Of a DNA stretch of 64,000 nucleotides, positions 5,976-53,300 are shown in pieces. Numbering within the stretch: the stretch's first letter is position 1; every line of letters starts with the position of its first letter. The notes below the pieces were generated by a model. The model saw nothing but the letters and a program-made list of their open reading frames with translations, searched no databases and was not told the origin of the DNA. This DNA is from an uncultured Rhizobium sp. (GTDB lineage Bacteria; Pseudomonadota; Alphaproteobacteria; SMXQ01). The stretch spans positions 17,473 through 81,472 of the forward strand of contig CAZVLU010000009.1 in NCBI GenBank assembly GCA_964628235.1, written 5' to 3'. The translations under genes and the position numbers were made by a program.

Positions 5976-6856
5976 TCGGCGGCGCTCCGGCTCATGGCGG
6001 CGCCCGGTTCGCGGCGGTCGCGGCAATAATCGGTGTCGGAGCAGACATAGAGCCGGCCGCCTTGGTCGTCGGTGACGATCTCGTCGAGAAAGCTCTCGTT
6101 CGAACCGCACAGGCCGCAGCTATGGGGCTGGCGGTCGATGCTGAACGGATGATCCTCGAAATCGAGGCTTTTCACCGGCGTGTAGGGCGGCACGGCGTAG
6201 ATCCGCTTCTCGCGCCCGGCGCCGAACAGTTGCAAGGCCGGCATGCGGTCCATCTTCGGATTGTCGAACTTCGGGATCGGCGACGGCGCCATGACGTAGC
6301 GGCCGTTGACCAGCACCGGATAATCGTAGGATGTCGTGATGCGGCCGTGGCGCGCGATGTCCTCATAGAGCTTCACATGCATGACGCCATATTCCGACAG
6401 CGCGTGCATTTTCTGCGTCTCGGTTTCGCGTGGCTCGAGGTAACGCAAAGGCTCGGGCATCGGCACCTGATAGACGATGATCTGGTCGTCGCGCAGCGGC
6501 GTCTCGGGGATGCGGTGGCGCGTCTGGATGACGCTGGCGTCCACCGTGCGCTCGGTCATGGCGACGCCGGCGGTGCGGTTGAAGAAGCGGCGGATCGAGA
6601 CGGCGTTGGTCGTGTCGTCGGCGCCCTGGTCGATCACTTTCAGCGTATCGTCCGAACCGACGATGGCGGCGGTGATCTGCATGCCGCCGGTGCCCCAGCC
6701 ATAGGCTAGCGGCATCTCACGGCTGCCGAAGGCGACCTGATAGCCGGGGATCGCCACAGCTTTCAGAATCGTGCGGCGGATCATCCGTTTCGTCTGTTCG
6801 TCGAGATAAGCGAAATTGTAGCCGGCGACACCGATTTGTTCGTCACGCTGCGTCAT
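5972..6856 (-). CDS. phnJ: Alpha-D-ribose 1-methylphosphonate 5-phosphate C-P lyase PhnJ
   Basis: Highly conserved PhnJ sequence including the C-terminal Cys cluster CGLCGSNESFLDE...VCSDTDYC. Confidence 0.92.
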   Translation of the reverse strand: MTQRDEQIGVAGYNFAYLDEQTKRMIRRTILKAVAIPGYQVAFGSREMPLAYGWGTGGMQITAAIVGSDDTLKVIDQGADDTTNAVSIRRFFNRTAGVAMTERTVDASVIQTRHRIPETPLRDDQIIVYQVPMPEPLRYLEPRETETQKMHALSEYGVMHVKLYEDIARHGRITTSYDYPVLVNGRYVMAPSPIPKFDNPKMDRMPALQLFGAGREKRIYAVPPYTPVKSLDFEDHPFSIDRQPHSCGLCGSNESFLDEIVTDDQGGRLYVCSDTDYCRDRREPGAAMSRSAAE

Positions 6857-16936: not shown

Positions 16937-18961
<2,025 letters not shown>

Positions 18962-19048: not shown

Positions 19049-19135
19049 TGGTGCCCCCAGCCGGAATCGAACCAGCACGCCCTCACGGGCAACAGATTTT
19101 GAGTCTGCCGCGTCTACCAGTTCCGCCATAGGGGC
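19049..19135 (-). tRNA. tRNA-Leu (anticodon CAA), type II with long variable arm
   Basis: Reverse complement gives GCCCCTATGGCGGAACTGGTAGACGCGGCAGACTCAAAATCTGTTGCCCGTGAGGGCGTGCTGGTTCGATTCCGGCTGGGGGCACCA. 7-bp acceptor stem, CT-CAA-AA anticodon loop, GGTTCGATTCC T-arm, encoded CCA. Confidence 0.82.
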
Positions 19136-20449: not shown

Positions 20450-20563
20450 CCCCAGGCTTTATTTTCCGACGCTGGGAGCAAAGACTGGCTCAGGATCGTT
20501 TCTGCGCCACGCTGCCTATTTTTCGGGCGAGCTACAGATAGAAACGGGGTTTCGCTTGCCGGA

Positions 20564-22258
20564 TTGGCCCTCTCGCCGCAGACTTCCGGCATGGCGTCAG
20601 CGCTTTCGAACTTGCGCGCGATCCGCAAGGTCAGGAAGGACGCGACTGGCGCTCGAGACCCTGCAGTTTCCCCCCTTGCCGTGCCCTCCCGCGCCATGAA
20701 AGCCGCCAAAATCAAACCCGCCTCGGCTGCCAAACCCAAGTCCGCGCCAAAATCCCCGCCAAAATCCGTGGTGGCGAAAGCCAAAGCGCCGCCTGCTGCG
20801 CCGAAAGCGGCCGCGAGCCCGCGCAAAGCCCTCGCCTTCGACGAAATGACCGCCTTCGCCGGCAACGGCCCGGTCACGCCGGAAAAAGTGCGCGAGGTTT
20901 ATAAAGTCTTCGCCGAATGGCAGGCGACGGTGCCGGCCAAGGAGTTCGAGCGCAAGCGCAAGGAAGCCGAGCTGCTGTTCCGCCGCCTCGGCATCACCTT
21001 CCTGGTTTACGGCAAGGAGACCTCGACCGAGCGCCTGATCCCGTTCGATGTCATCCCGCGCATCTTCACCGCCGAGGAATGGCAGATCATCCACGATGGC
21101 TGCTGCCAGCGCGTGCGCGCCATCAACGCCTTTCTGGGCGACATCTATCACAACCAGGACATCCTCCATGCCGGCCGCATCCCCGCCGAGGAAGTGCTGA
21201 TCAATCCGCAATATCGCCCCGAGATGCAGGGCCTCGACGTGCCGGGCGGCGTCTATGTCCATATCGCCGGCCTCGACCTGGTGCGCACCGGCGAGCGCGA
21301 CTTCTACGTGCTGGAAGACAATCTGCGGACGCCATCGGGCGTCTCCTACATGCTGGAAAACCGCAACGTCATGATGCGGCTGTTCCCCGACCTGTTCTCG
21401 GCCCACAAGGTGGCGCCCGTCGACAATTATCCGGCGCATATGATGGCGAGCCTGCGCGCCCTGGCGCCCGGCGGCGCGAACAACCCGACCGTCGTGCTGC
21501 TGTCGCCCGGCGCTTACAACAGCGCCTATTTCGAGCATGTGTTCCTGGCCGACCAAATGGGCATCGACGTCGTCGAAGGCCAGGATTTGTTCGTGAAAAA
21601 CGGCCATGTCTTCATGCGCACCACCAAAGGTCCGCAGCAAGTCGACGTGATTTATCGCCGCGTCGACGACGATTTCCTCGATCCCTTGGCCTTCCACCGC
21701 GATTCGATGCTCGGCGTGCCCGGCTTGCTCGCCGCCTACCGCGCCGGCAACGTCACGCTGGCCAACGCCATCGGCACCGGCGTCGCCGACGACAAGTCGA
21801 TGTACGTCCATGTGCCCGAGATGATCCGCTTCTATCTCGGCGAAGAGCCGATCCTGCAAAACGTGCCGACTTACGTGCTGCGCGACGACAAGGACCGCGC
21901 TTACGTGCTCGACAACCTCGACAAGCTGGTGGTCAAGGAAGTGCACGGCTCAGGCGGCTACGGCATGCTCGTCGGCCCCGCCGCGACGACGAAGGAGCTT
22001 CAGGACTTCGCCAAGCGCATCGTCGCCAATCCGGGCAATTACATCGCCCAGCCGACGCTCGCGCTGTCGACCTGCCCGACCTTCGTCAGCAAGGGCATCG
22101 CGCCGCGCCATGTCGACTTCCGTCCCTTCGTCGTCACCGGCAAGACGCAGACCCTGGTGCCCGGCGGCCTGACCCGCGTCGCCCTGATCAAAGGCTCGCT
22201 GGTGGTCAATTCGTCGCAGGGCGGCGGCACCAAAGACACTTGGATTTTGGAGAACTGA
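20564..22258 (+). CDS. Circularly permuted type-2 ATP-grasp protein (COG2308 / DUF404-DUF407 amidoligase); N-terminal A/K/P-rich extension uncertain
   Basis: Core from ~FDEMTAFAGNGP... through C-terminal ...GLTRVALIKGSLVVNSSQGGGTKDTWIL matches cpATP-grasp. Internal ATG at 20846 would give a canonical-length protein. Confidence 0.8.
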   Translation: MALSPQTSGMASALSNLRAIRKVRKDATGARDPAVSPLAVPSRAMKAAKIKPASAAKPKSAPKSPPKSVVAKAKAPPAAPKAAASPRKALAFDEMTAFAGNGPVTPEKVREVYKVFAEWQATVPAKEFERKRKEAELLFRRLGITFLVYGKETSTERLIPFDVIPRIFTAEEWQIIHDGCCQRVRAINAFLGDIYHNQDILHAGRIPAEEVLINPQYRPEMQGLDVPGGVYVHIAGLDLVRTGERDFYVLEDNLRTPSGVSYMLENRNVMMRLFPDLFSAHKVAPVDNYPAHMMASLRALAPGGANNPTVVLLSPGAYNSAYFEHVFLADQMGIDVVEGQDLFVKNGHVFMRTTKGPQQVDVIYRRVDDDFLDPLAFHRDSMLGVPGLLAAYRAGNVTLANAIGTGVADDKSMYVHVPEMIRFYLGEEPILQNVPTYVLRDDKDRAYVLDNLDKLVVKEVHGSGGYGMLVGPAATTKELQDFAKRIVANPGNYIAQPTLALSTCPTFVSKGIAPRHVDFRPFVVTGKTQTLVPGGLTRVALIKGSLVVNSSQGGGTKDTWILEN

Positions 22259-22261
22259 CGC

Positions 22262-23203
22262 ATGCTGGGACGCAGCGCCAATCACCTCTACTGGATGTCG
22301 CGCTACATCGAGCGCGCCGAGAACACCGCGCGCATCTTGGAGATCAGCCAGCGCATGGCGCTGCTGCCCCATGTCGCCAAGAAGGGCGCCAGCGAATGGC
22401 AGGCCGTGCTCGAGATCGCCGGCGACGTCGAGGATTACACCAAGCGCTATGGCGACATCACCGCTGCCAAGGTGACGGCCTATCTCACGCTCGACCGCGA
22501 GAACTCGTCGAGCATTTGGTCGACGATCCGCGCCGCGCGCGAGAACGCCCACGCCGAACGCGTCTGCATCACCTCGGAAATGTGGGAAAGCCTCAACGCC
22601 ACCTGGCTCGAGGTGAAAGATCTGACGCCGGCGATGCTCGGCAAGAACGGCCAGCGCGACTTCTTCGACTGGATCAAGGAGCGCTCGCATCTGTTCCGCG
22701 GCATCACCTTCGGCACCATGCTGCGCGACGAAGCCTATCACTTCGGCCGCCTCGGCACCTTCGTCGAGCGCTCCGACAATGTCGCGCGAATCCTCGACGT
22801 GAAATATCACGTGCTGCTGCCCTCGGTCGACGATGTCGGCGGCGTGATCGACAATTTCCAGTGGGGCGCGCTGCTGCGCTCGGTCTCCGGCTTTCGCGCC
22901 TATCATCGCGTCTATCACGACACGATCGAGCCGCGCCGCGTCACCGAACTGCTGATCCTCAATGATTCGATGCCGCGCTCGCTGCATTCCTGCCTCGATG
23001 CCACCATCGGCCTGCTCGCCATGCTCAGCGCCGAGAAGCCGACGGAAGCGGCGCGCCTCGCCGGCGAACTGCATGCCTCGTTGCATTACGGCAAGATCGG
23101 CGACATCTTCAAGACCGGCCTGCACGAGTTTCTGACGGTCTTCCTGAAGCGCAACAACGCGCTATCGGCCGAAATTCAGCACAGCTTCCATTTGGCGGCT
23201 TAA
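22262..23203 (+). CDS. Alpha-E domain protein (COG2307 / DUF403)
   Basis: MLGRSANHLYWMSRYIERAENTARILEI... is the hallmark alpha-E N-terminus. Immediately downstream of the ATP-grasp gene. Confidence 0.85.
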   Translation: MLGRSANHLYWMSRYIERAENTARILEISQRMALLPHVAKKGASEWQAVLEIAGDVEDYTKRYGDITAAKVTAYLTLDRENSSSIWSTIRAARENAHAERVCITSEMWESLNATWLEVKDLTPAMLGKNGQRDFFDWIKERSHLFRGITFGTMLRDEAYHFGRLGTFVERSDNVARILDVKYHVLLPSVDDVGGVIDNFQWGALLRSVSGFRAYHRVYHDTIEPRRVTELLILNDSMPRSLHSCLDATIGLLAMLSAEKPTEAARLAGELHASLHYGKIGDIFKTGLHEFLTVFLKRNNALSAEIQHSFHLAA

Positions 23204-23208
23204 ACAGC

Positions 23209-24063
23209 ATGAAACTCGCCATCCAGCACGCCACGGTTTACCGCTACGAAGCGCCGGTGAACTACAGCATCCAATATCTGCACCTGACGCCGCGCACGGC
23301 GGCCTGCCAGCGCGTGTTGCGCTGGCGCCTGGAAACGCCCGGCCAGGTGATCGAGATGCCCGACGCCTTCGGCAACATCATGCATGTGCTGGTGGTCGAC
23401 AAGCCGCACGACGAAATCGCCATCCGCGTCAGCGGCGAAGTCGAGACCACCGACACCGCCGGCATCATCGGCAGCGAGACCGAAACCCTGCCGCCCGGCG
23501 TTTATCTGCGCCGCTCGCACCTGACAGAAGGCGGCGCGCCCGTCGCCGATTTGGTCGCGCCGTTGCGCAAGATCGTCGCCAAAGACCGCCTCGACGGCCT
23601 GCATGAACTGCTCCTCAAGGTGAACGGCGCGGTCGCCTACCGCCAAGGCGAGACCGACGCGCAGACCACCGCCGCCGACGCGCTCGCCCAAGGGTCGGGC
23701 GTCTGCCAGGACCAGGCCCATGTCTTCGTCTCGGCGGCACGCGCGTTGGGAATTCCGGCGCGTTATGTCTCCGGCTATCTGCATGTCGGCATCGGCGCCG
23801 GCGAAAACGCCTCGCATGCTTGGGCCGAGGCCTGGGTCGACGCGCTGGGCTGGGTCGGCTTCGACATCACCAACGGCATCTCGCCGACCGAATCGCATTT
23901 GCGCCTCGCCGTCGGGCTCGATTACCTCGCTTGCGCCCCCGTGCGCGGCGTGCGCCGCGGCGGCGGCTCGGAAGCGCTCGACGTCTCCGTGCAAGTTAAC
24001 CAGGGCAGCCTCGCTGTCACACCGACGGCGCCGCTGTCGCCCCACGGCGGGCAAGCCCAATAG
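23209..24063 (+). CDS. Transglutaminase-like cysteine peptidase family protein (COG1305)
   Basis: Catalytic Cys region QGSGVCQDQAHVFVSAARALGIPARYVSGYL, followed by His/Asp region ASHAWAEAWVDALGWVGFDITNG. Confidence 0.85.
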   Translation: MKLAIQHATVYRYEAPVNYSIQYLHLTPRTAACQRVLRWRLETPGQVIEMPDAFGNIMHVLVVDKPHDEIAIRVSGEVETTDTAGIIGSETETLPPGVYLRRSHLTEGGAPVADLVAPLRKIVAKDRLDGLHELLLKVNGAVAYRQGETDAQTTAADALAQGSGVCQDQAHVFVSAARALGIPARYVSGYLHVGIGAGENASHAWAEAWVDALGWVGFDITNGISPTESHLRLAVGLDYLACAPVRGVRRGGGSEALDVSVQVNQGSLAVTPTAPLSPHGGQAQ

Positions 24064-24218
24064 CCGGCAGCCCCTCCCCAGCGAAAATACCCCGCAAAGC
24101 CCGGCGCTCGCGCAGCCCGCAATCGCCCGGCGCACGCCCGCTTTCCTATAGAGCCGCTCCCCCCGCTCCGATATGCTCGCGCACCAAGCGCCCCCCAGCA
24201 GACGATGACCCCGCATCC

Positions 24219-24950
24219 ATGACTTACGCCGTCGGTTTCCTTCTCCAATCCGGTCTTCTCTTTGCCGCCGACACCCGCACCAACGCGGGCGTCGACCATG
24301 TCTCGACCTTCCGCAAACTCACCGTCTTCGACAAGCCGGGCGACCGCGTCATGACGCTGCTCACCGCCGGCAATCTGGCGATCAGCCAGGCGGTGATCGA
24401 AGAGCTGCGCGAGGGCGTGCGCACCAAGCGCAAAGAAAACCTGATGAACGTGCGCAGCCTGTTCGCCGCCGCGCGCCTGGTGGGAACCGCCGTCCGCAAG
24501 GTCCACGACGTCGACGGCGAAGCGCTGCGCCAGCACGACACCGATTTCAACGTCTCCTTCATCTTCGGCGGCCAGATCAAGGGCGAGCATCACCGCTTGT
24601 TCCAGGTCTATTCCGCCGGCAATTTCATCGAAGCGACGATCGACAGCCCTTACTTCCAGATCGGCGAGAACAAATACGGCAAGCCGATCATCGACCGCGT
24701 CATCCGCCACAAGTCGAGCTTGATGGAAGCGGCAAAATGCACGCTGCTGTCGTTCGATTCGACCATGCGAAGCAACGTCTCGGTCGGCCTGCCGATCAAC
24801 CTGATGGCCTATCGCAAGGACAGCTACAAGCGCGGCTTCGAAGTCGAAGTCGACGCCGCCAACGATTATTACCGCAGCGTCGGCGGCTATTGGAGCGACG
24901 CGCTGCGCTTCGCCTTTCAGGAAATGCCCAATCCCGACTGGAAACTCTGA
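24219..24950 (+). CDS. Anbu (ancestral beta-subunit) proteasome-type peptidase (COG3484)
   Basis: MTYAVGF... with Thr directly after the initiator Met, beta-subunit-like fold. Fourth gene of the cluster. Confidence 0.78.
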   Translation: MTYAVGFLLQSGLLFAADTRTNAGVDHVSTFRKLTVFDKPGDRVMTLLTAGNLAISQAVIEELREGVRTKRKENLMNVRSLFAAARLVGTAVRKVHDVDGEALRQHDTDFNVSFIFGGQIKGEHHRLFQVYSAGNFIEATIDSPYFQIGENKYGKPIIDRVIRHKSSLMEAAKCTLLSFDSTMRSNVSVGLPINLMAYRKDSYKRGFEVEVDAANDYYRSVGGYWSDALRFAFQEMPNPDWKL

Positions 24951-25036
24951 GGCGCGCCGAAGCCGCGCGGGCTTGTGATTTTGCCCAGCGATGCCGCCAT
25001 GCTGAACTGCCGCCTCGACATCCTTGAGGACCCGCC

Positions 25037-47208: not shown

Positions 47209-48105
47209 GTGACTCTCGCCGCAACCCCAGCCCTTTCTTTGGGCGATCAAGCGCAACCGCCGCGCCCTGCCGTCAAGGCTCGGGCGCGGCGTCGCGTGCT
47301 GCCCGGCTTCGGGCTGACGATGGGCGCGACATTGTTCTATCTCGCGCTGATCGTGCTGCTGCCGGTGGCGGCGCTCATTCTGAAAACCGCCGACGGCGGC
47401 TGGTTGCGCTTCTGGCAGGTGATCTCGAGCGAGCGTGCCGTCGCGGCCTTCCAGGTGACGATCGGCGCGGCGATTCTCGCCACGATTTTCAACGCTCTTT
47501 ACGGGCTGCTGATGGCCTGGGTGCTGGCGCGCTACCGTTTTCCCGGCCGGCGCAGTCTCGACGCGCTGATCGACCTGCCCTTCGCCCTGCCCACCGCCGT
47601 CGCCGGCATCGCGCTCACCGCGCTCTACGCCGGCAACGGCTGGTTCGGCGCGGTCTTGGAGCCGGCCGGCCTCAAAGTCGTCTACACCATCGTCGGCGTC
47701 GCCGTCGCCATGGCCTTCACCAGCGTGCCCTTCGTCGTGCGCACGGTGCAGCCGGTGATCGAGGAGCTGAAAGCCGAGACGGAAGAAGCCGCGCGCACGC
47801 TCGGCGCCAGCGACTGGCAAGTCTTCACCCGGGTAATCTATCCGGCGATTTTTCCCGCCCATCTCGCCGGCTGCGCCATGTCGTTCGCGCGCAGCATGGG
47901 CGAGTTCGGCGCGGTCATCTTCATCGCCGGCAACTTGCCGTTCCAGACCGAGATCGCGCCCTTGCTGATCTTCATCCGGCTGGAGGAGTACGATTATCCG
48001 GCCGCCAGCGCGATCGCCGTCGTGCTGCTCGCCGTCGCCTTCGTCCTGCTGCTGACCACCAACGCCATCCAGGCCTGGCGGCTCAAGCGGGTCGTGAAGG
48101 ACTAG
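47209..48105 (+). CDS. cysT: Sulfate ABC transporter permease CysT
   Basis: CysT-type permease, EAA-like loop (EEAARTLGASDWQVFTRV). GTG start. Confidence 0.85.
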   Translation: MTLAATPALSLGDQAQPPRPAVKARARRRVLPGFGLTMGATLFYLALIVLLPVAALILKTADGGWLRFWQVISSERAVAAFQVTIGAAILATIFNALYGLLMAWVLARYRFPGRRSLDALIDLPFALPTAVAGIALTALYAGNGWFGAVLEPAGLKVVYTIVGVAVAMAFTSVPFVVRTVQPVIEELKAETEEAARTLGASDWQVFTRVIYPAIFPAHLAGCAMSFARSMGEFGAVIFIAGNLPFQTEIAPLLIFIRLEEYDYPAASAIAVVLLAVAFVLLLTTNAIQAWRLKRVVKD

Positions 48106-48108
48106 GCC

Positions 48109-48954
48109 ATGGCGATCGCGCAGCCCGATACTCTTCTGCAAGCGCCGCCGAGCCGCGCGCCGCGCTGGCTGATCGGCGCCGGCATCGTGTTGACCGCGCT
48201 GTTCATCGTCGGGCCCTTGCTGATGATCTTCGACCAAGCCCTCGCCAAGGGCCTCGCGGTCTTTCGCCAGAACCTGTTCCACCCCGAGACGCTGCATGCC
48301 GTCTATCTGACCGTGCTCACCGCGCTGGTCGTCGTGCCGCTCAACATCCTGTTCGGCGTCGCCGCCGCCTGGGCCATCACCAAGTTCGAATTCCCCGGCA
48401 AGAAGCTGCTGCTGACCGCCATCGATATTCCCTTCTCGGTATCGCCGATCGTCGCCGGCGTCTGCTACCTGCTGCTCTACGGCTCGAACGGCCTGTTCGG
48501 CCCCTGGCTCGAAGCGGCCGACGTGCGCATCATGTTCAGCGTGCCGGCGATCATGCTGGTGACTCTGTTCGTCACCAGCCCCTTCGTGGCGCGCGAACTG
48601 ATTCCGCTGATGCAGGTGCAGGGCCGCGACCAGGAAGAGGTCGCCGCCACCTTGGGCGCCAGCGGCTGGCAGATTTTCCGCCGCGTCACCCTGCCCAACA
48701 TCAAATGGGCGCTGCTCTACGGCGCGGTGCTGTGCAACGCGCGCGCCATGGGCGAGTTCGGCGCCGTGTCGGTCGTCTCCGGCAACATCCGCGGCGAGAC
48801 CAACACCTTGCCGCTGCAAGTGCAGTTGCTCTATCACGACTACAACGCGACCGGCGCCTTCGCCGCCGCGACGATCCTCACGCTGCTCGCCTTCGTGACG
48901 CTGATCCTCAAGGCCTGGCTCGAACGCCACACGCGGGGACAGGGCGGGCATTGA
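48109..48954 (+). CDS. cysW: Sulfate ABC transporter permease CysW
   Basis: CysW-type permease (EEVAATLGASGWQIFRRVTLP). Confidence 0.85.
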   Translation: MAIAQPDTLLQAPPSRAPRWLIGAGIVLTALFIVGPLLMIFDQALAKGLAVFRQNLFHPETLHAVYLTVLTALVVVPLNILFGVAAAWAITKFEFPGKKLLLTAIDIPFSVSPIVAGVCYLLLYGSNGLFGPWLEAADVRIMFSVPAIMLVTLFVTSPFVARELIPLMQVQGRDQEEVAATLGASGWQIFRRVTLPNIKWALLYGAVLCNARAMGEFGAVSVVSGNIRGETNTLPLQVQLLYHDYNATGAFAAATILTLLAFVTLILKAWLERHTRGQGGH

Positions 48955-49021
48955 GGTTGCAAATAGCTGAAACGATTCTTCTTTTTTAAGGCCTTGATTT
49001 TCTTAAATAAACAACTACATT

Positions 49022-49780
49022 TTGAGTAAGCTATATGGGATAGATTTTATCCGCATGCCTTACTTAAAAGCTCCGATCACTGAGGCCGTATTGGATATCC
49101 GCGTGTCGCCACGCGCCGATATAACAGTCGAAGAGCTTGGCCAATTATCTAAGATATTTGGGTCGCGCTATCCCTCGTCTGAGGACGTTCTGCATTTCAC
49201 TGGAACGTACGAAATAGGCTCATCGAAAACTGAACCTGTTACCTCAGAAAAAATAGGCTTCATTTTTAAAAATGCCGAGCAAAGCAAAGTTTTTCAGGCC
49301 CAAAAACTAGGCTTCAGCTTTAACAAATTAGCTCCCTATGAAAGTTGGGAACTTTTTAGTGCCGAAGCTAAAGAGCTTTGGAAGCAATATAAGGCTATCG
49401 CAAAACCTCTAAATATTACCCGTGTAGGCCTGCGATATATCAACAAGCTCAATCTTCCCGTTGGCTTGAAGGACTTTGGAAAATACCTGAAGCAAGCTCC
49501 AGAATTGGCCCCGGGATTGCCTCAGGGGCTATCTAATTTTTTTACTCAATTTCAAATTCCATATGCAGATGTAGAAGCCATGTTGATCATAAACATGACT
49601 ATGGCCCCGCCCCCCGATAAAGAAACGGCATCGGTTATCTTGGATTTAGACGTGTTTCGCGCGCACTCAGTGCCGCAAGGCGATGCTGACTTATGGGCAT
49701 ATTTTGAAAAGCTACGCGCAAAGAAGAATGAGGCTTTTGAAGCCTGCATCACAGACGCCACAAGGGAGCTATTTAAATAA
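49022..49780 (+). CDS. Hypothetical protein, gene 1 of low-GC three-gene cassette (possibly TIGR04255-like; unverified)
   Basis: AT-rich codon usage, 252 aa from TTG 49022 (ATG at 49055 gives MPYLKAPITEAVLDIRV...). Contains RVGLRYINKLNLP. No motif I can assign with confidence. Confidence 0.55.
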   Translation: MSKLYGIDFIRMPYLKAPITEAVLDIRVSPRADITVEELGQLSKIFGSRYPSSEDVLHFTGTYEIGSSKTEPVTSEKIGFIFKNAEQSKVFQAQKLGFSFNKLAPYESWELFSAEAKELWKQYKAIAKPLNITRVGLRYINKLNLPVGLKDFGKYLKQAPELAPGLPQGLSNFFTQFQIPYADVEAMLIINMTMAPPPDKETASVILDLDVFRAHSVPQGDADLWAYFEKLRAKKNEAFEACITDATRELFK

Positions 49781-50115
49781 TGGCAACTGCCTTCTTCGCT
49801 GAACCTTTTACTGCGGATAGTGCTGTCGAGCAAAAGGAGCCGCTCTACATGTCGTTTTCACGAATGCACGAACTGCCTCGCATTCAGCACAAATATTTCA
49901 CCAAGCCTGAGACTGCGTTTGGCGCTGAATCTATGCATGTCAGTATCGTGGCACATGATGCCTTCCGCCGTATTATTCAACTAATTGGACCTTACAACTC
50001 TGTTATATCTCATGACCCATATGAGTATTTCAGTGTTGAATTGCCAACTCGCGAAGCTCGTGCTCGCGTAAATAATATTGGGCGAATTGTCCCTATGCAT
50101 CTAACTGATGATTAA
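49780..50115 (+). CDS. Hypothetical protein, gene 2 of low-GC cassette
   Basis: 111 aa. Start overlaps gene-1 stop (TAATG). No recognisable domain. Confidence 0.45.
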   Translation: MATAFFAEPFTADSAVEQKEPLYMSFSRMHELPRIQHKYFTKPETAFGAESMHVSIVAHDAFRRIIQLIGPYNSVISHDPYEYFSVELPTREARARVNNIGRIVPMHLTDD

Positions 50116-50117
50116 GC

Positions 50118-50639
50118 ATGCCGGCTTGGTGGCAACAGATCGATGGCCCCACTCTTAATCAGGGGGATCTGTTGAGAGGAATTTCTATTCCCATTATCAA
50201 ATCTAATTTTCCGGAAGCTGACGAAAACGGCAATGTACCGTTTGATATTGCGACCACGGACGTTCTCGTCCTTACCCAAAGCTGTGATTTGGTGAATGGT
50301 AAATCTGCAAATGTTCTAGTTGCTGTTGTCCACTCACTAATTGAGTTTGAGAAAACCAACCCGGCTTACGAAAAGGACAAAAGCAAGTGGGGGATGGTTT
50401 CAAAAGGCCGTGTCGAAGGATTGCACTTGTTGCAATCGCCTGAAGCGATGCCAGATGGGCGCAATTATTTACTGGCTGATTTTCGACATATCGTCAGTTT
50501 GCCTTATCAATACACTTCGCAATTTGCAGAAACTGCTGGTCAGAGATGGCGATTAACCTCGCCTTATCTAGAAGCTATGTCTCAAGCCTTTGGGAATCTC
50601 TTTATGCGAGTCGCGATCCCTAATCCAATACGTTTGTGA
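50118..50639 (+). CDS. Hypothetical protein, gene 3 of low-GC cassette
   Basis: 173 aa. ATG 2 nt after gene-2 stop. No recognisable domain. Followed by hairpin CGGGATAAcaaaatTTATCCCG at ~50713-50735. Confidence 0.5.
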   Translation: MPAWWQQIDGPTLNQGDLLRGISIPIIKSNFPEADENGNVPFDIATTDVLVLTQSCDLVNGKSANVLVAVVHSLIEFEKTNPAYEKDKSKWGMVSKGRVEGLHLLQSPEAMPDGRNYLLADFRHIVSLPYQYTSQFAETAGQRWRLTSPYLEAMSQAFGNLFMRVAIPNPIRL

Positions 50640-50924
50640 TTACTCCTGATCGTCTGTGGATAAACCTGTGGGCAATCCCCATATCTGTCCCTCGGATATT
50701 CGCGGTGGAAAGCCGGGATAACAAAATTTATCCCGAGAATTTCTCAGGTTTTTCAGTGGGTTATTGACTACCCATCCTCTGTGAAACATATCGCGAACAT
50801 TGTTTTGCGCGCGGCCCCGCCGTACACTCGTTTTTGCCCCAGTAAGGCAATTCCCCAGCGTTGCGCGTTTGGCCGCCATGACCTTCGAGTCTCGGCGGCG
50901 TTTTTATCGTCGGAGAAGCGGTCC

Positions 50925-53300
50925 ATGGCCTCGGTTGCAGCGATTTCCCAACAGATCTGGGACATGAAATACCGCCTCAAGGACGCCCAGGGCGTGCCTG
51001 TGGATAAATCCATCGAGGACACTTGGCGGCGCATCGCCGACGCCCTGGCCGAGGTCGAAGCCGACAAGGCCGCCTGGTCCGACAAGTTCTACGGCGCGCT
51101 GGAAGACTTCGCCTTCCTGCCGGCCGGCCGCATCATCGCCGGCGCCGGCACGGGCCGCAGCGTCACCCTGTTCAACTGCTTCGTCATGGGCACCGTGCCC
51201 GACGCCATGGGCGGCATCTTCGCGCATCTGCGCGAAGCGGCGCTGACCATGCAGCAGGGCGGCGGCATCGGTTACGACTTCTCGACGCTGCGCCCCAAGG
51301 GCGCGCCGGTGAAGGGCGTCGGGGCCGACGCCTCCGGCCCGCTCAGCTTCATGGACGTGTGGGACGCCATGTGCCGCACCATCATGTCGGCCGGCAGCCG
51401 CCGCGGCGCCATGATGGCGACCATGCGCTGCGACCACCCCGACATCGAAGCCTTCATCGAGGCCAAGCGCGAGCCGGGCCGGCTGCGCATGTTCAACCTC
51501 TCGGTCCTCGTCACCGACCCCTTCATGGACGCGGTGAAACACAATCTGCCGTGGGATTTGACGTTCGACGGCACGGTCTATCGCACGATCGAAGCCCGCG
51601 CGTTGTGGGACAAAATCATGCACGCGACCTATTCCTATGCGGAACCCGGCGTGATCTTCATCGACCGCATCAACCGCCGCAACAACCTCAGCTATTGCGA
51701 GAGCATCAGCGCCACCAACCCCTGCGGCGAGCAACCCCTGCCGCCCTATGGCGCATGCCTGCTCGGCTCGATCAACCTCGCCCGCCTGGTGCGCGAGCCG
51801 TTCGAGGAAAACGCCCATCTCGACATGGATCGCCTGCGCGAGCTGGTGCCGCTCGCCGTGCGCATGATGGACAATGTGGTCGACGTCTCGCGCTTCCCGC
51901 TCGAAGAGCAGACGCGCGAAGCCCAGGCCAAGCGCCGCATCGGCCTCGGCGTCACCGGCCTGGCCGACGCGCTGATCATGTGCCGCGCCCGCTACGGCTC
52001 GACCGAAGCCCTGCGCCTGACGGCGGAATGGATGAGCGCCATCGAGCGCACCGCTTATTTGGCGTCCACCGAGCTCGCGCGCGAAAAAGGCGCCTTCCCG
52101 CTGTTCGACAAAGACGCTTACTTGGCCGGCGAGACGATTCGCGGGCTCGATGCCGACGTGCAGGCCGCCATCGCCAAGCACGGCATCCGCAACGCGCTGC
52201 TCACCTCGATCGCGCCGACCGGCACCATCTCGCTGCTCGCCGACAATGTCTCGTCGGGGTTGGAGCCGGTGTTCAGCTTCACCTACACGCGCCGTATCCT
52301 GCTGCCCGACGGCACCCGCCAGGAGGAAGAAGTCAGCGATTACGCCTTCCGCCTGTTCAAGCGCCTGAAGGGCGACAACCTGCCGCTGCCCGACTACTTC
52401 GTCGACGCCCAGGTGCTGGCGCCCGCCGACCATGTCGCCATGCAGGCCGTGGTGCAGAAATACGTCGACAGCTCGATCTCCAAGACCATCAACATGCCGG
52501 TCGACATCGACTTCGAGGATTTCAAGAGCGTCTATATGCAAGCCTACGAGCAGGGCTGCAAAGGCTGCACGACCTACCGCCCGAACGACATCACCGGCTC
52601 GGTGCTGGAAGTGAAGCCGCAGAAGGACAAGGAAGAAGGCCAGCAGGAGCTGCCGCTGGAAAAGCAGCCGGCGCGCTTCGCCGATCCGTTCGAGGCCGGC
52701 GGCGTCGTTTACATGACGCAGCCGCTCGACCGCCCGGGCGAGCTTGCGGGGCGCACCTACAAGCTGCGCTGGCCCGAGAGCGAGCACGCCATGTACATCA
52801 CGATCAACGACATCGTGCAGGACGGCCGCACCCGCCCCTTCGAGATCTTCGTGAATTCGAAGAACATGGAGCATTTCGCCTGGACCGTCGGCCTGACGCG
52901 CATGATCTCGGCGGTGTTCCGCCGCGGCGGCGATGTCTCGTTCGTGGTCGAGGAATTGAAAGCCGTGTTCGATCCGCGCGGCGGCCAATGGATGGAAGGC
53001 CGCTATGTGCCCTCGCTCCTCGCCGCCATCGGCGACGTCATCGAGCAGCATATGATCGAGATCGGCTTCATGCCCAACTCGAAGGAAAAGCGCGAAGGCC
53101 ATTTGGAGCGCCAGGTGGTCAACCTCGCCGAGGCGCGCGGCCACGAGGATCATGGGCATGACCACAAGGGCCACGATCACGCCCCTAAAGCCAGCCCCGA
53201 CTCGCGCTACCGCCAATGCCCGAAATGCGGCCAAGCCAGCCTGATCAAACAAGAAGGCTGCGATAGCTGCCAGAGCTGCGCTTATTCGAAGTGCGGGTGA
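50925..53300 (+). CDS. nrdJ: Class II (adenosylcobalamin-dependent) ribonucleotide reductase NrdJ, with C-terminal His-rich / Cys-cluster tail
   Basis: RNR 10-strand barrel motifs (NPCGEQPLPPYGACLLGSINL; thiyl-radical Cys loop). ~791 aa from ATG 50925, SD GGAGAAG upstream. C-terminus HEDHGHDHKGHDH...CPKCG...CDSCQSCAYSKCG. Confidence 0.9.
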   Translation: MASVAAISQQIWDMKYRLKDAQGVPVDKSIEDTWRRIADALAEVEADKAAWSDKFYGALEDFAFLPAGRIIAGAGTGRSVTLFNCFVMGTVPDAMGGIFAHLREAALTMQQGGGIGYDFSTLRPKGAPVKGVGADASGPLSFMDVWDAMCRTIMSAGSRRGAMMATMRCDHPDIEAFIEAKREPGRLRMFNLSVLVTDPFMDAVKHNLPWDLTFDGTVYRTIEARALWDKIMHATYSYAEPGVIFIDRINRRNNLSYCESISATNPCGEQPLPPYGACLLGSINLARLVREPFEENAHLDMDRLRELVPLAVRMMDNVVDVSRFPLEEQTREAQAKRRIGLGVTGLADALIMCRARYGSTEALRLTAEWMSAIERTAYLASTELAREKGAFPLFDKDAYLAGETIRGLDADVQAAIAKHGIRNALLTSIAPTGTISLLADNVSSGLEPVFSFTYTRRILLPDGTRQEEEVSDYAFRLFKRLKGDNLPLPDYFVDAQVLAPADHVAMQAVVQKYVDSSISKTINMPVDIDFEDFKSVYMQAYEQGCKGCTTYRPNDITGSVLEVKPQKDKEEGQQELPLEKQPARFADPFEAGGVVYMTQPLDRPGELAGRTYKLRWPESEHAMYITINDIVQDGRTRPFEIFVNSKNMEHFAWTVGLTRMISAVFRRGGDVSFVVEELKAVFDPRGGQWMEGRYVPSLLAAIGDVIEQHMIEIGFMPNSKEKREGHLERQVVNLAEARGHEDHGHDHKGHDHAPKASPDSRYRQCPKCGQASLIKQEGCDSCQSCAYSKCG

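Follow-up and report, generated by a model that had tools for sequence, protein, structure and literature searches.

Composition and catalytic residues of the operon

In a 64-kb stretch of DNA from the chromosome of an uncultured alphaproteobacterium (contig CAZVLU010000009.1; "the window" below means this whole stretch, whose G+C content is 64-67% over most of its length), four consecutive genes on one strand encode a circularly permuted ATP-grasp (cpATP-grasp) protein, an alpha-E protein, a transglutaminase-like protein and the proteasome-type peptidase Anbu. Their positions are as follows, the first being given both as a mechanical open reading frame (ORF) and from its likely start:

20564-22258, likely 20591-22258, + strand: gene 1, cpATP-grasp protein, from Pfam and PDB matches
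22262-23203, + strand: gene 2, alpha-E protein, 313 amino acids, from Pfam matches
23209-24063, + strand: gene 3, transglutaminase-like protein, 284 amino acids, from Pfam matches
24219-24950, + strand: gene 4, Anbu, subtype Anbu-1, 243 amino acids, from matches to Anbu structures in the PDB

The gaps between them are 3, 5 and 155 nucleotides (nt), in gene order, and all four frames were chosen as coding in a screen based on G+C content at third codon positions. A first-pass annotation had already placed four consecutive same-strand genes here, assigned them to these families, and described the set as the complete four-gene version, with an Anbu in which Thr directly follows the initiator Met. 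The ORF list agrees with the gene positions, apart from the start of gene 1, which is corrected below; the protein does begin Met-Thr; the Pfam check that the annotation had called for supports all four families, and the PDB matches bear out its assignments.

Gene 1 matched the Pfam families CP_ATPgrasp_2 (PF14403, E = 5e-165) and CP_ATPgrasp_1 (PF04174, E = 4e-153), and aligned with PDB entry 3n6x at E = 1e-221. Gene 2 matched Alpha-E (PF04168, E = 4e-98) over its full length, and at least 7998 homologues were found at E ≤ 1e-10. Its AlphaFold2 model (predicted local distance difference test score, pLDDT, 82.5) is all helical; the protein had no PDB relative by sequence, and a Foldseek search of the model against the PDB returned none at E ≤ 0.001. 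Gene 3 matched both Bact_transglu_N (PF08379) and Transglut_core (PF01841), each at about 1e-22, and also PDB entry 3isr by sequence; the same entry was the best fold match of its AlphaFold2 model (pLDDT 91.3), with a template modelling score of 0.74. Cys166, His203 and Asp219 of this protein were invariant among 24 homologues.

The Pfam Proteasome match of gene 4 was weak (3e-6). The protein aligned over its full length with every solved Anbu (5loy, 6e-85; 5nyj, 8e-79; 5nyf, 3e-78; 5nyw, 1e-71; 5lox, 3e-61), with residues 2-242 aligning to residues 1-240 of 5loy, C-terminal extension included. It starts MTYAVG, i.e., Thr1 stands directly after Met with no propeptide, and Thr1, Asp17 and Lys32 (T2, D18 and K33 in precursor numbering) were invariant among 30 homologues. 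Thr1 after Met, Asp17 and Lys32/33 are the features by which Anbu is recognized in the literature (PMC6376114, PMC5666114). The S1 pocket of Anbu-1 (T20, F30, T48, L52 and S55 in P. aeruginosa Anbu, Pa-Anbu) is distinguished from the basic pocket of Anbu-2 (PMC5666114), and because the five residues of the window protein are identical to those of the P. aeruginosa Anbu-1, we class it as Anbu-1. The Anbu family as a whole comprised 255 clusters (50% identity) at E ≤ 1e-30, and 1604 at E ≤ 1e-10.

Pfam searches of 24 ORFs, i.e., the four genes of the operon and 20 more, which take in every neighbour up to about 5 kb away on each side, revealed no AAA+ ATPase and no second proteasome subunit. Taken with the domain and structure matches, the intact catalytic residues and S1 pocket, the published gene order and the 3- and 5-nt gaps, this indicates that the locus is almost certainly a canonical Anbu operon of the Anbu-1 type.

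Anbu was named by Valas and Bourne (2008), and the operon was defined with COG2308, COG2307 and COG1305; a note added in proof recorded that in P. putida under nitrogen limitation it was upregulated more than any other gene set (PMC3235984). Fuchs (2017) reported structures of P. aeruginosa Anbu (gene PA1733) and of a consensus Anbu, forming a dodecameric open ring, with Thr1 of Pa-Anbu able to bind MG132 and epoxomicin (PMC5666114). Piasecka (2018) described the four genes as being "in conserved order", and a Yersinia ATP-grasp protein that releases inorganic phosphate from ATP (PMC6376114). The first-pass annotation had mentioned a prediction of peptide ligation, protein modification or a peptide metabolite for this neighbourhood; this can be traced to Iyer et al. 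(2009), to whom PMC5666114 and PMC6376114 credit the prediction of a system for peptide ligation or tagging. It had also described substrate and role as lacking experimental evidence, in agreement with Piasecka (2018; PMC6376114); the searchable literature up to 2026 contained no functional assignment for the Anbu operon.

The operon is therefore already described as a class (Valas and Bourne, 2008; Iyer et al., 2009; Fuchs, 2017; Piasecka, 2018), and the copy in the window is an ordinary one with minor clade-specific features. Compared with the Anbu operons of P. aeruginosa (PA1733), Yersinia bercovieri and Hyphomicrobium sp. MC1, it has the same families in the same order, the same Anbu residues and S1 pocket, and likewise no AAA+ partner, whereas in the window clade the ligase has an additional N-terminal tail rich in Lys, Ala and Pro. 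It also differs from the Yersinia and Klebsiella copies in having a 155-nt, motif-bearing spacer before Anbu where theirs is only 14-16 nt, and from gammaproteobacterial copies in that its clade has no convincing sigma-54-type promoter. By itself the locus adds little, being one more orthologue of an operon that has been known since 2008 and that tractable model bacteria also carry.

Among the related loci 31 were informative, and 24 of these have the four genes on one strand in the same succession as the window, with ATP-grasp first, then alpha-E, transglutaminase-like and Anbu. Two betaproteobacterial loci have Anbu ahead of a divergent transglutaminase-like gene, and two further related loci carry rearranged versions of the operon. 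The same four genes are present in the annotated genomes of Ralstonia, Klebsiella, Aeromonas, Paracoccus and Yersinia, with product names (in Ralstonia, Klebsiella and Paracoccus) of "circularly permuted type 2 ATP-grasp protein", "alpha-E domain-containing protein", "transglutaminase family protein" and "peptidase" or "proteasome-type protease". Genes 1-3 occur without Anbu on pSymB of S. meliloti and in Hymenobacter, and, within the stretch examined, Agrobacterium, Azospirillum and Chondrinema have the first two genes only. ATP-grasp and alpha-E appear to form the conserved core, with the transglutaminase-like enzyme a frequent partner and Anbu an accessory. The closest public relatives of the window are alphaproteobacterial metagenome-assembled genomes, with Anbu proteins 86-93% identical, and a Joint Genome Institute contig whose alpha-E protein is 98% identical; the Anbu protein of the window itself was not among recorded sequences. 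The remaining three of the 31 loci, from Opitutales (L028, L029 and L031), have Anbu alone (about 40% identical; 6001-6726 in each), none of the other three genes of the operon lying in the 6 kb to each side.

Position 20564, where the mechanical ORF of gene 1 begins, is a TTG, the first after a stop codon, and is a mere ORF limit. Comparison of the sequences indicates that gene 1 likely starts at ATG 20591 (555 amino acids, MASAL...) or ATG 20696 (520 amino acids, MKAAKIK...). The upstream ATG is the sole in-frame ATG of gene 1 in L003, L004, L033 and L023; it has been lost in L001 and L005, where the downstream ATG is used. A separate leader peptide or upstream ORF beginning MASAL... was considered and rejected, since this segment is in the frame of gene 1 in some relatives, a stop codon intervenes in L005, and the ATG is lost in L001. 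We read it instead as a shifting start codon. The downstream ATG opens the following feature, defined by composition and comparison:

20696-20836, + strand: Lys/Ala/Pro-rich N-terminal extension of gene 1

These 47 amino acids (11 Lys, 16 Ala and 9 Pro; isoelectric point 11.6) precede a conserved FDEM motif. The extension is found in L001, L003, L004, L005 and L033, i.e., only in the closest clade to the window; distant relatives lack it, their proteins beginning about five residues before the FDEM motif.

Terminal glutamine and predicted sigma-54 promoters in the family

The transglutaminase-like protein of the window ends ...GGQAQ, the last Gln being encoded by CAA at 24058-24060 and followed by a TAG stop codon at 24061-24063. 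Residues 270-284 of this tail have pLDDT values below 50, and are disordered in the AlphaFold2 model. A terminal Gln was present in 27 of 31 context-verified transglutaminase-like genes, including those of Klebsiella, Aeromonas and Paracoccus. Outside that 31-gene table, the proteins of Hymenobacter and Yersinia are also Gln-terminated, the Yersinia orthologue, from a verified four-gene operon, ending ...RRDMSQ. Among the best clusters to the window protein, an alphaproteobacterial set, the last residue was Gln in 107 of 120; in a gammaproteobacterial set, the full-length clusters that best matched the Aeromonas protein (Yersinia, Klebsiella, Dickeya, Serratia, Erwinia, Alcanivorax), it was Gln in 113 of 118. 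Terminal Gln thus accounts for 89-96% across these 238 homologues. In the controls it was found in only 7 of 120 alpha-E homologues and 8 of 150 Anbu representatives, and the background frequency of Gln was 3-5%.

Gln was also present at position -2 in about 60%, and at -3 in 30-37%, of the transglutaminase-like tails, with terminal runs of up to eight Gln. A conserved GGGxE motif is followed by a tail of 10 to more than 45 residues, and there were 186 distinct last-8-mers among 220 tails; terminal Gln was found at 88% or more in every tail-length bin. At the DNA level, the terminal Gln codon was CAA in 24 of the 27 Gln-ending loci (in genomes of 60-71% G+C), Gln at -2 was always encoded by CAG, the stop codon after the terminal codon was TAG or TAA in 23 of 31 genes, and one clade conserves CAATAGGTATAGA across the stop codon. 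A literature search, which did not reach Iyer et al. (2009), found no paper that mentions the terminal Gln of the transglutaminase-like protein.

The second lead concerns promoters. Strong sites of the type TGGCAC-N5-TTGC lie approximately 50-100 nt upstream of gene 1 in the beta- and gammaproteobacterial loci L007, L021, L022, L025, L035 (Klebsiella), L037 (Aeromonas) and L044 (Yersinia). Sigma-54 sites scoring at least 14 of 15.5 numbered about 14 in 0.88 million positions scanned, and this rarity argues that their placement upstream of gene 1 is not due to chance. The sites fit the published induction by nitrogen limitation, so that in beta- and gammaproteobacteria the operon, as judged from these predicted sites, is probably driven by sigma-54 under nitrogen limitation. 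Both the terminal Gln and the sigma-54 sites are leads that concern the family at large, and neither is peculiar to the window.

Proposed chemistry and competing explanations

The proteasome may have descended from Anbu, whose partner genes give a hint of ATP-dependent modification of peptides or proteins in bacteria, with a substrate that 17 years of work have not revealed. The terminal Gln on a disordered tail, together with the sigma-54 promoters of beta- and gammaproteobacteria, points to glutamine or amide chemistry under nitrogen control. The explanation that we favour, tentatively and with confidence well short of even, is that the operon encodes an ATP-driven module for making and breaking amide bonds on Gln/Glu-type groups of peptides or proteins, in the service of nitrogen economy. 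The cpATP-grasp enzyme, aided by alpha-E, would activate a carboxylate as an acyl-phosphate and ligate it to an amine. The Cys-His-Asp enzyme of gene 3 would, to judge from its fold, deamidate or transamidate Gln side chains, with ammonia released or transferred. Its flexible, Gln-ended tail, given its conservation, might serve as a primer or acceptor for the ligase, or as a pseudo-substrate that gates the active site. Finally, the split-ring dodecamer of Anbu-1 would hydrolyse the resulting peptide or isopeptide products. The choice of Gln/Glu amide chemistry is based on the Gln-specific fold, the Gln-ended tail, the amphiphilic, hydrogen-bonding S1 pocket of Anbu-1, and the acidic-specific pocket proposed for Anbu-2. 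The phosphate release by the Yersinia ATP-grasp protein (PMC6376114), the binding of proteasome inhibitors to Thr1 of Pa-Anbu (PMC5666114), the induction in nitrogen-limited P. putida (PMC3235984) and the sigma-54 sites also speak for such a module.

Several observations weigh against this amide-bond module. Piasecka (PMC6376114) detected neither peptidase activity of Anbu nor a stable complex of the four proteins, and saw no effect of Anbu that stimulated the ATPase; no substrate, product or phenotype has been reported for any member of the family. The Ralstonia (...AEAA) and S. meliloti (...QAQN) proteins lack the terminal Gln, and the homologue samples from which the Gln statistics were drawn are phylogenetically non-independent. 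Given the bias to CAA and the conserved DNA across the stop codon, part of the terminal-Gln signal could be a constraint at the nucleotide level. There was, in addition, no convincing sigma-54 promoter upstream of the operon in the window or its alphaproteobacterial relatives.

A narrower proposal is that the end of the tail is itself the physiological substrate or primer of the ligase, either through RimK/TTL-like extension or through Pup-like deamidation and ligation, with Anbu reading or removing the modification. We regard this as doubtful. In the only published co-expression pull-down, the Yersinia transglutaminase-like protein bore a C-terminal FLAG tag (PMC6376114), and if the tail were the substrate, the earlier negative biochemistry would have failed partly through that tag. 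The Lys/Ala/Pro-rich tail would then tether the ligase of the window clade to a polyanionic surface, such as the nucleoid, the ribosome or polyphosphate.

Among the alternatives to the amide-bond module, the one that survives best, although it is rather unlikely, is that the product is a small molecule or short peptide, comparable with glutathionylspermidine or cyanophycin. The ATP-grasp enzyme would make a gamma-glutamyl-type amide that the Cys hydrolase and Anbu dismantle, and proteins would not be substrates. The glutathionylspermidine synthetase/amidase GspS pairs a ligase with a papain-fold amidase, and the pairing of genes 1 and 3 mirrors this arrangement; moreover, the sole solved homologue of gene 1, 3n6x, was deposited as a "putative glutathionylspermidine synthase". 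As in GspSA and eukaryotic-type glutathione synthetase, the operon joins a permuted ATP-grasp-type amide synthetase to a Cys amidohydrolase of the papain superfamily, with the same make-and-break logic. Unlike GspSA, however, it places the two activities on separate proteins, its Cys enzyme is transglutaminase-like with Bact_transglu_N rather than CHAP, and alpha-E and Anbu have no counterpart there. A metabolite would also suit the wide occurrence of the ATP-grasp and alpha-E core without Anbu, and at times without the transglutaminase-like gene, as well as the inactivity of Anbu on proteasome substrates (PMC6376114), the standard LLVY, VGR and LLE substrates having been negative. On the other hand, Anbu is a dodecameric ring with an S1 pocket like that of proteasomes, which speaks for substrates that are peptides or proteins (PMC5666114), and the conserved terminal Gln on a protein tail is left unexplained.

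Non-specific scavenging of nitrogen, a hypothesis put forward in PMC6376114, is in our judgement unlikely. Here Anbu would degrade proteins indiscriminately during starvation while the transglutaminase-like enzyme strips amide nitrogen from Gln, the ligase being separate or regulatory. This would account for the induction in nitrogen-limited P. putida (PMC3235984) and for the sigma-54 promoters of the beta- and gammaproteobacterial relatives, but no such site was found in the clade of the window, Anbu shows no general peptidase activity (PMC6376114), and the most conserved pair, i.e., ATP-grasp and alpha-E, is given no role.

The operon might also be a tagging system like that of Pup, in which a C-terminal Gln, of the transglutaminase-like protein or another, is deamidated to Glu and ligated to lysines of target proteins, with Anbu degrading or de-conjugating the products; we consider this improbable, and more so than any of the explanations above. 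The chemistry of Pup is established, and Pup ends in GGQ, which a Gln on a flexible tail resembles. The parallel with the Pup-proteasome of Actinobacteria (Pup, Dop, PafA, Mpa, PrcAB) extends to an ATP-dependent carboxylate-amine ligase encoded next to a Thr peptidase of the proteasome family. A tagging role was proposed by Iyer et al. (2009), as cited in PMC6376114, and Anbu forms a compartment-like ring that binds proteasome inhibitors (PMC5666114). However, the ligase has an ATP-grasp fold rather than one like glutamine synthetase, Anbu forms an open, split ring where the 20S proteasome is a closed barrel, and the operon has no small tag protein, Dop, AAA+ unfoldase or alpha subunit. Neither the leader nor the spacer holds a conserved small ORF that could encode a Pup-like tag, the neighbouring genes include none for an unfoldase, and the Pfam scans of the 24 ORFs, which were general and not aimed at Pup, found no AAA+ ATPase or second proteasome subunit at the locus. 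An enzyme of 27-31 kDa would be an unusual tag, conjugates or complexes have not been reported (PMC6376114), and the terminal Gln is also present in clusters that lack Anbu, e.g., that of Hymenobacter.

HslVU provides a further comparison. Like Anbu, HslV is a bacterial Thr peptidase of the proteasome family built from beta-type subunits only; unlike Anbu, it needs the AAA+ protein HslU, encoded beside it, responds to heat shock and not to nitrogen, and forms closed hexameric rings.

That the four genes do not work together, and are adjacent merely by chance or lineage synteny, is effectively refuted by conservation across classes: although the 155-nt gap with its conserved motif precedes Anbu, and the unrelated genes for DsbB and COQ7 are also syntenic downstream in about 20 loci, the order recurs in Alpha-, Beta- and Gammaproteobacteria amid otherwise different neighbourhoods, genes 1-3 are only 3-5 nt apart, and the genes are co-regulated in P. 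putida (PMC3235984).

Leader, spacer and neighbouring genes

Three non-coding features were delineated around the operon:

20450-20590, + strand: leader/promoter region, with the clade-conserved block GGGGTTTCGCTTGCCGGATTGGC.CTCTCGCCGCAGACTTCC
24064-24218, + strand: spacer of 155 nt between gene 3 and Anbu, with the motif GCTCCGATATGCTC at 24165-24178
24960-24984, + strand: terminator-like hairpin with a T-rich tail, 10 nt past the Anbu stop codon, from a consensus scan

The leader block is conserved in a DNA alignment with L001, L003, L004, L005 and L023. Its 13-mer core, GGGGTTTCGCTTG, at 20546-20558, is unique in the window, and each of these five loci has a single copy upstream of gene 1. 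The core has GG-N10-GC spacing, but is a poor match to the -24 element of sigma-54 promoters, and the GC of the -12 element is lost in L023; a sigma-54 promoter at this position was therefore rejected. A consensus scan found no sigma-70 site in the leader of the window. A riboswitch or other known RNA in the leader or spacer was also rejected, there being no Rfam match in either.

The spacer before Anbu was 90-170 nt in nearly all alphaproteobacterial relatives (91-166 nt in 22 that were measured). Its motif GCTCCGATATGCTC is conserved in L001, L002, L003, L005 and L033, and in part in L004, and may be an internal promoter for Anbu. A small ORF, or a propeptide of Anbu, starting from the ATG in GATATGCTC was considered and rejected: this ATG shares the frame of Anbu in L001, L002, L005 and L033, but in the window and L003 it opens another frame that is terminated, and L004 lacks it.

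The frame of gene 3 is open past its stop codon as far as a TGA that overlaps the ATG of Anbu (ATGA), at 24064-24222 in the window, and the same is seen in L001, L002, L005, L033 and L034. The spacers in these six loci are 155, 152, 146, 146, 110 and 83 nt, all equal to 2 modulo 3. Readthrough of the stop codon from gene 3 into Anbu was rejected, because the open frame shows no conservation of its amino acids and, in other clades, a second stop follows at once; the open frame is probably the result of chance and shared ancestry. The number of hairpins in the region was not above shuffle expectation, so that the evidence for a terminator after Anbu is weak.

The neighbours of the operon are housekeeping genes. 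Upstream are rsmB, a split ygiQ-type radical SAM gene, tRNA-Leu and a gene for an NMT1-like binding protein; downstream are dsbB, COQ7, a gene for a Band 7 protein and others. The dsbB-COQ7 pair lies 3' of Anbu in the approximately 20 syntenic loci mentioned above, all alphaproteobacterial. In most relatives a gene for a 193-residue VTT/DedA-type (YqaA-like) membrane protein lies between Anbu and dsbB (L001, 6736-7317; L012, 6743-7324; L033, 6273-6854); the window (24951-25036) and L005 are without it, and have only about 90 nt there.

No paralogue of any of the four genes was found in the window. A second copy or fused form of the operon was sought across the 64 kb and rejected, an ORF of 839 amino acids being a class II ribonucleotide reductase and one of 900 amino acids a DUF4175 protein. 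The ribonucleotide reductase gene lies at 50781-53300 (Ribonuc_red_lgC and TSCPD), and G+C content falls to 0.55-0.58 at 48001-52000, upstream of and into the start of this gene. No cobalamin riboswitch or other Rfam family reached its gathering score in 48001-52000. The sole Rfam/ARAGORN match across the window was tRNA-Leu(CAA), at 19049-19135 on the - strand. The YgiQ-family radical SAM gene (Radical_SAM_N, Radical_SAM and DUF3362; 16937-18961, - strand) contains a single in-frame TAG at 17846-17848 that splits it into ORFs of 371 and 285 amino acids in the same frame; this could be due to a pseudogene, a sequencing error or readthrough.

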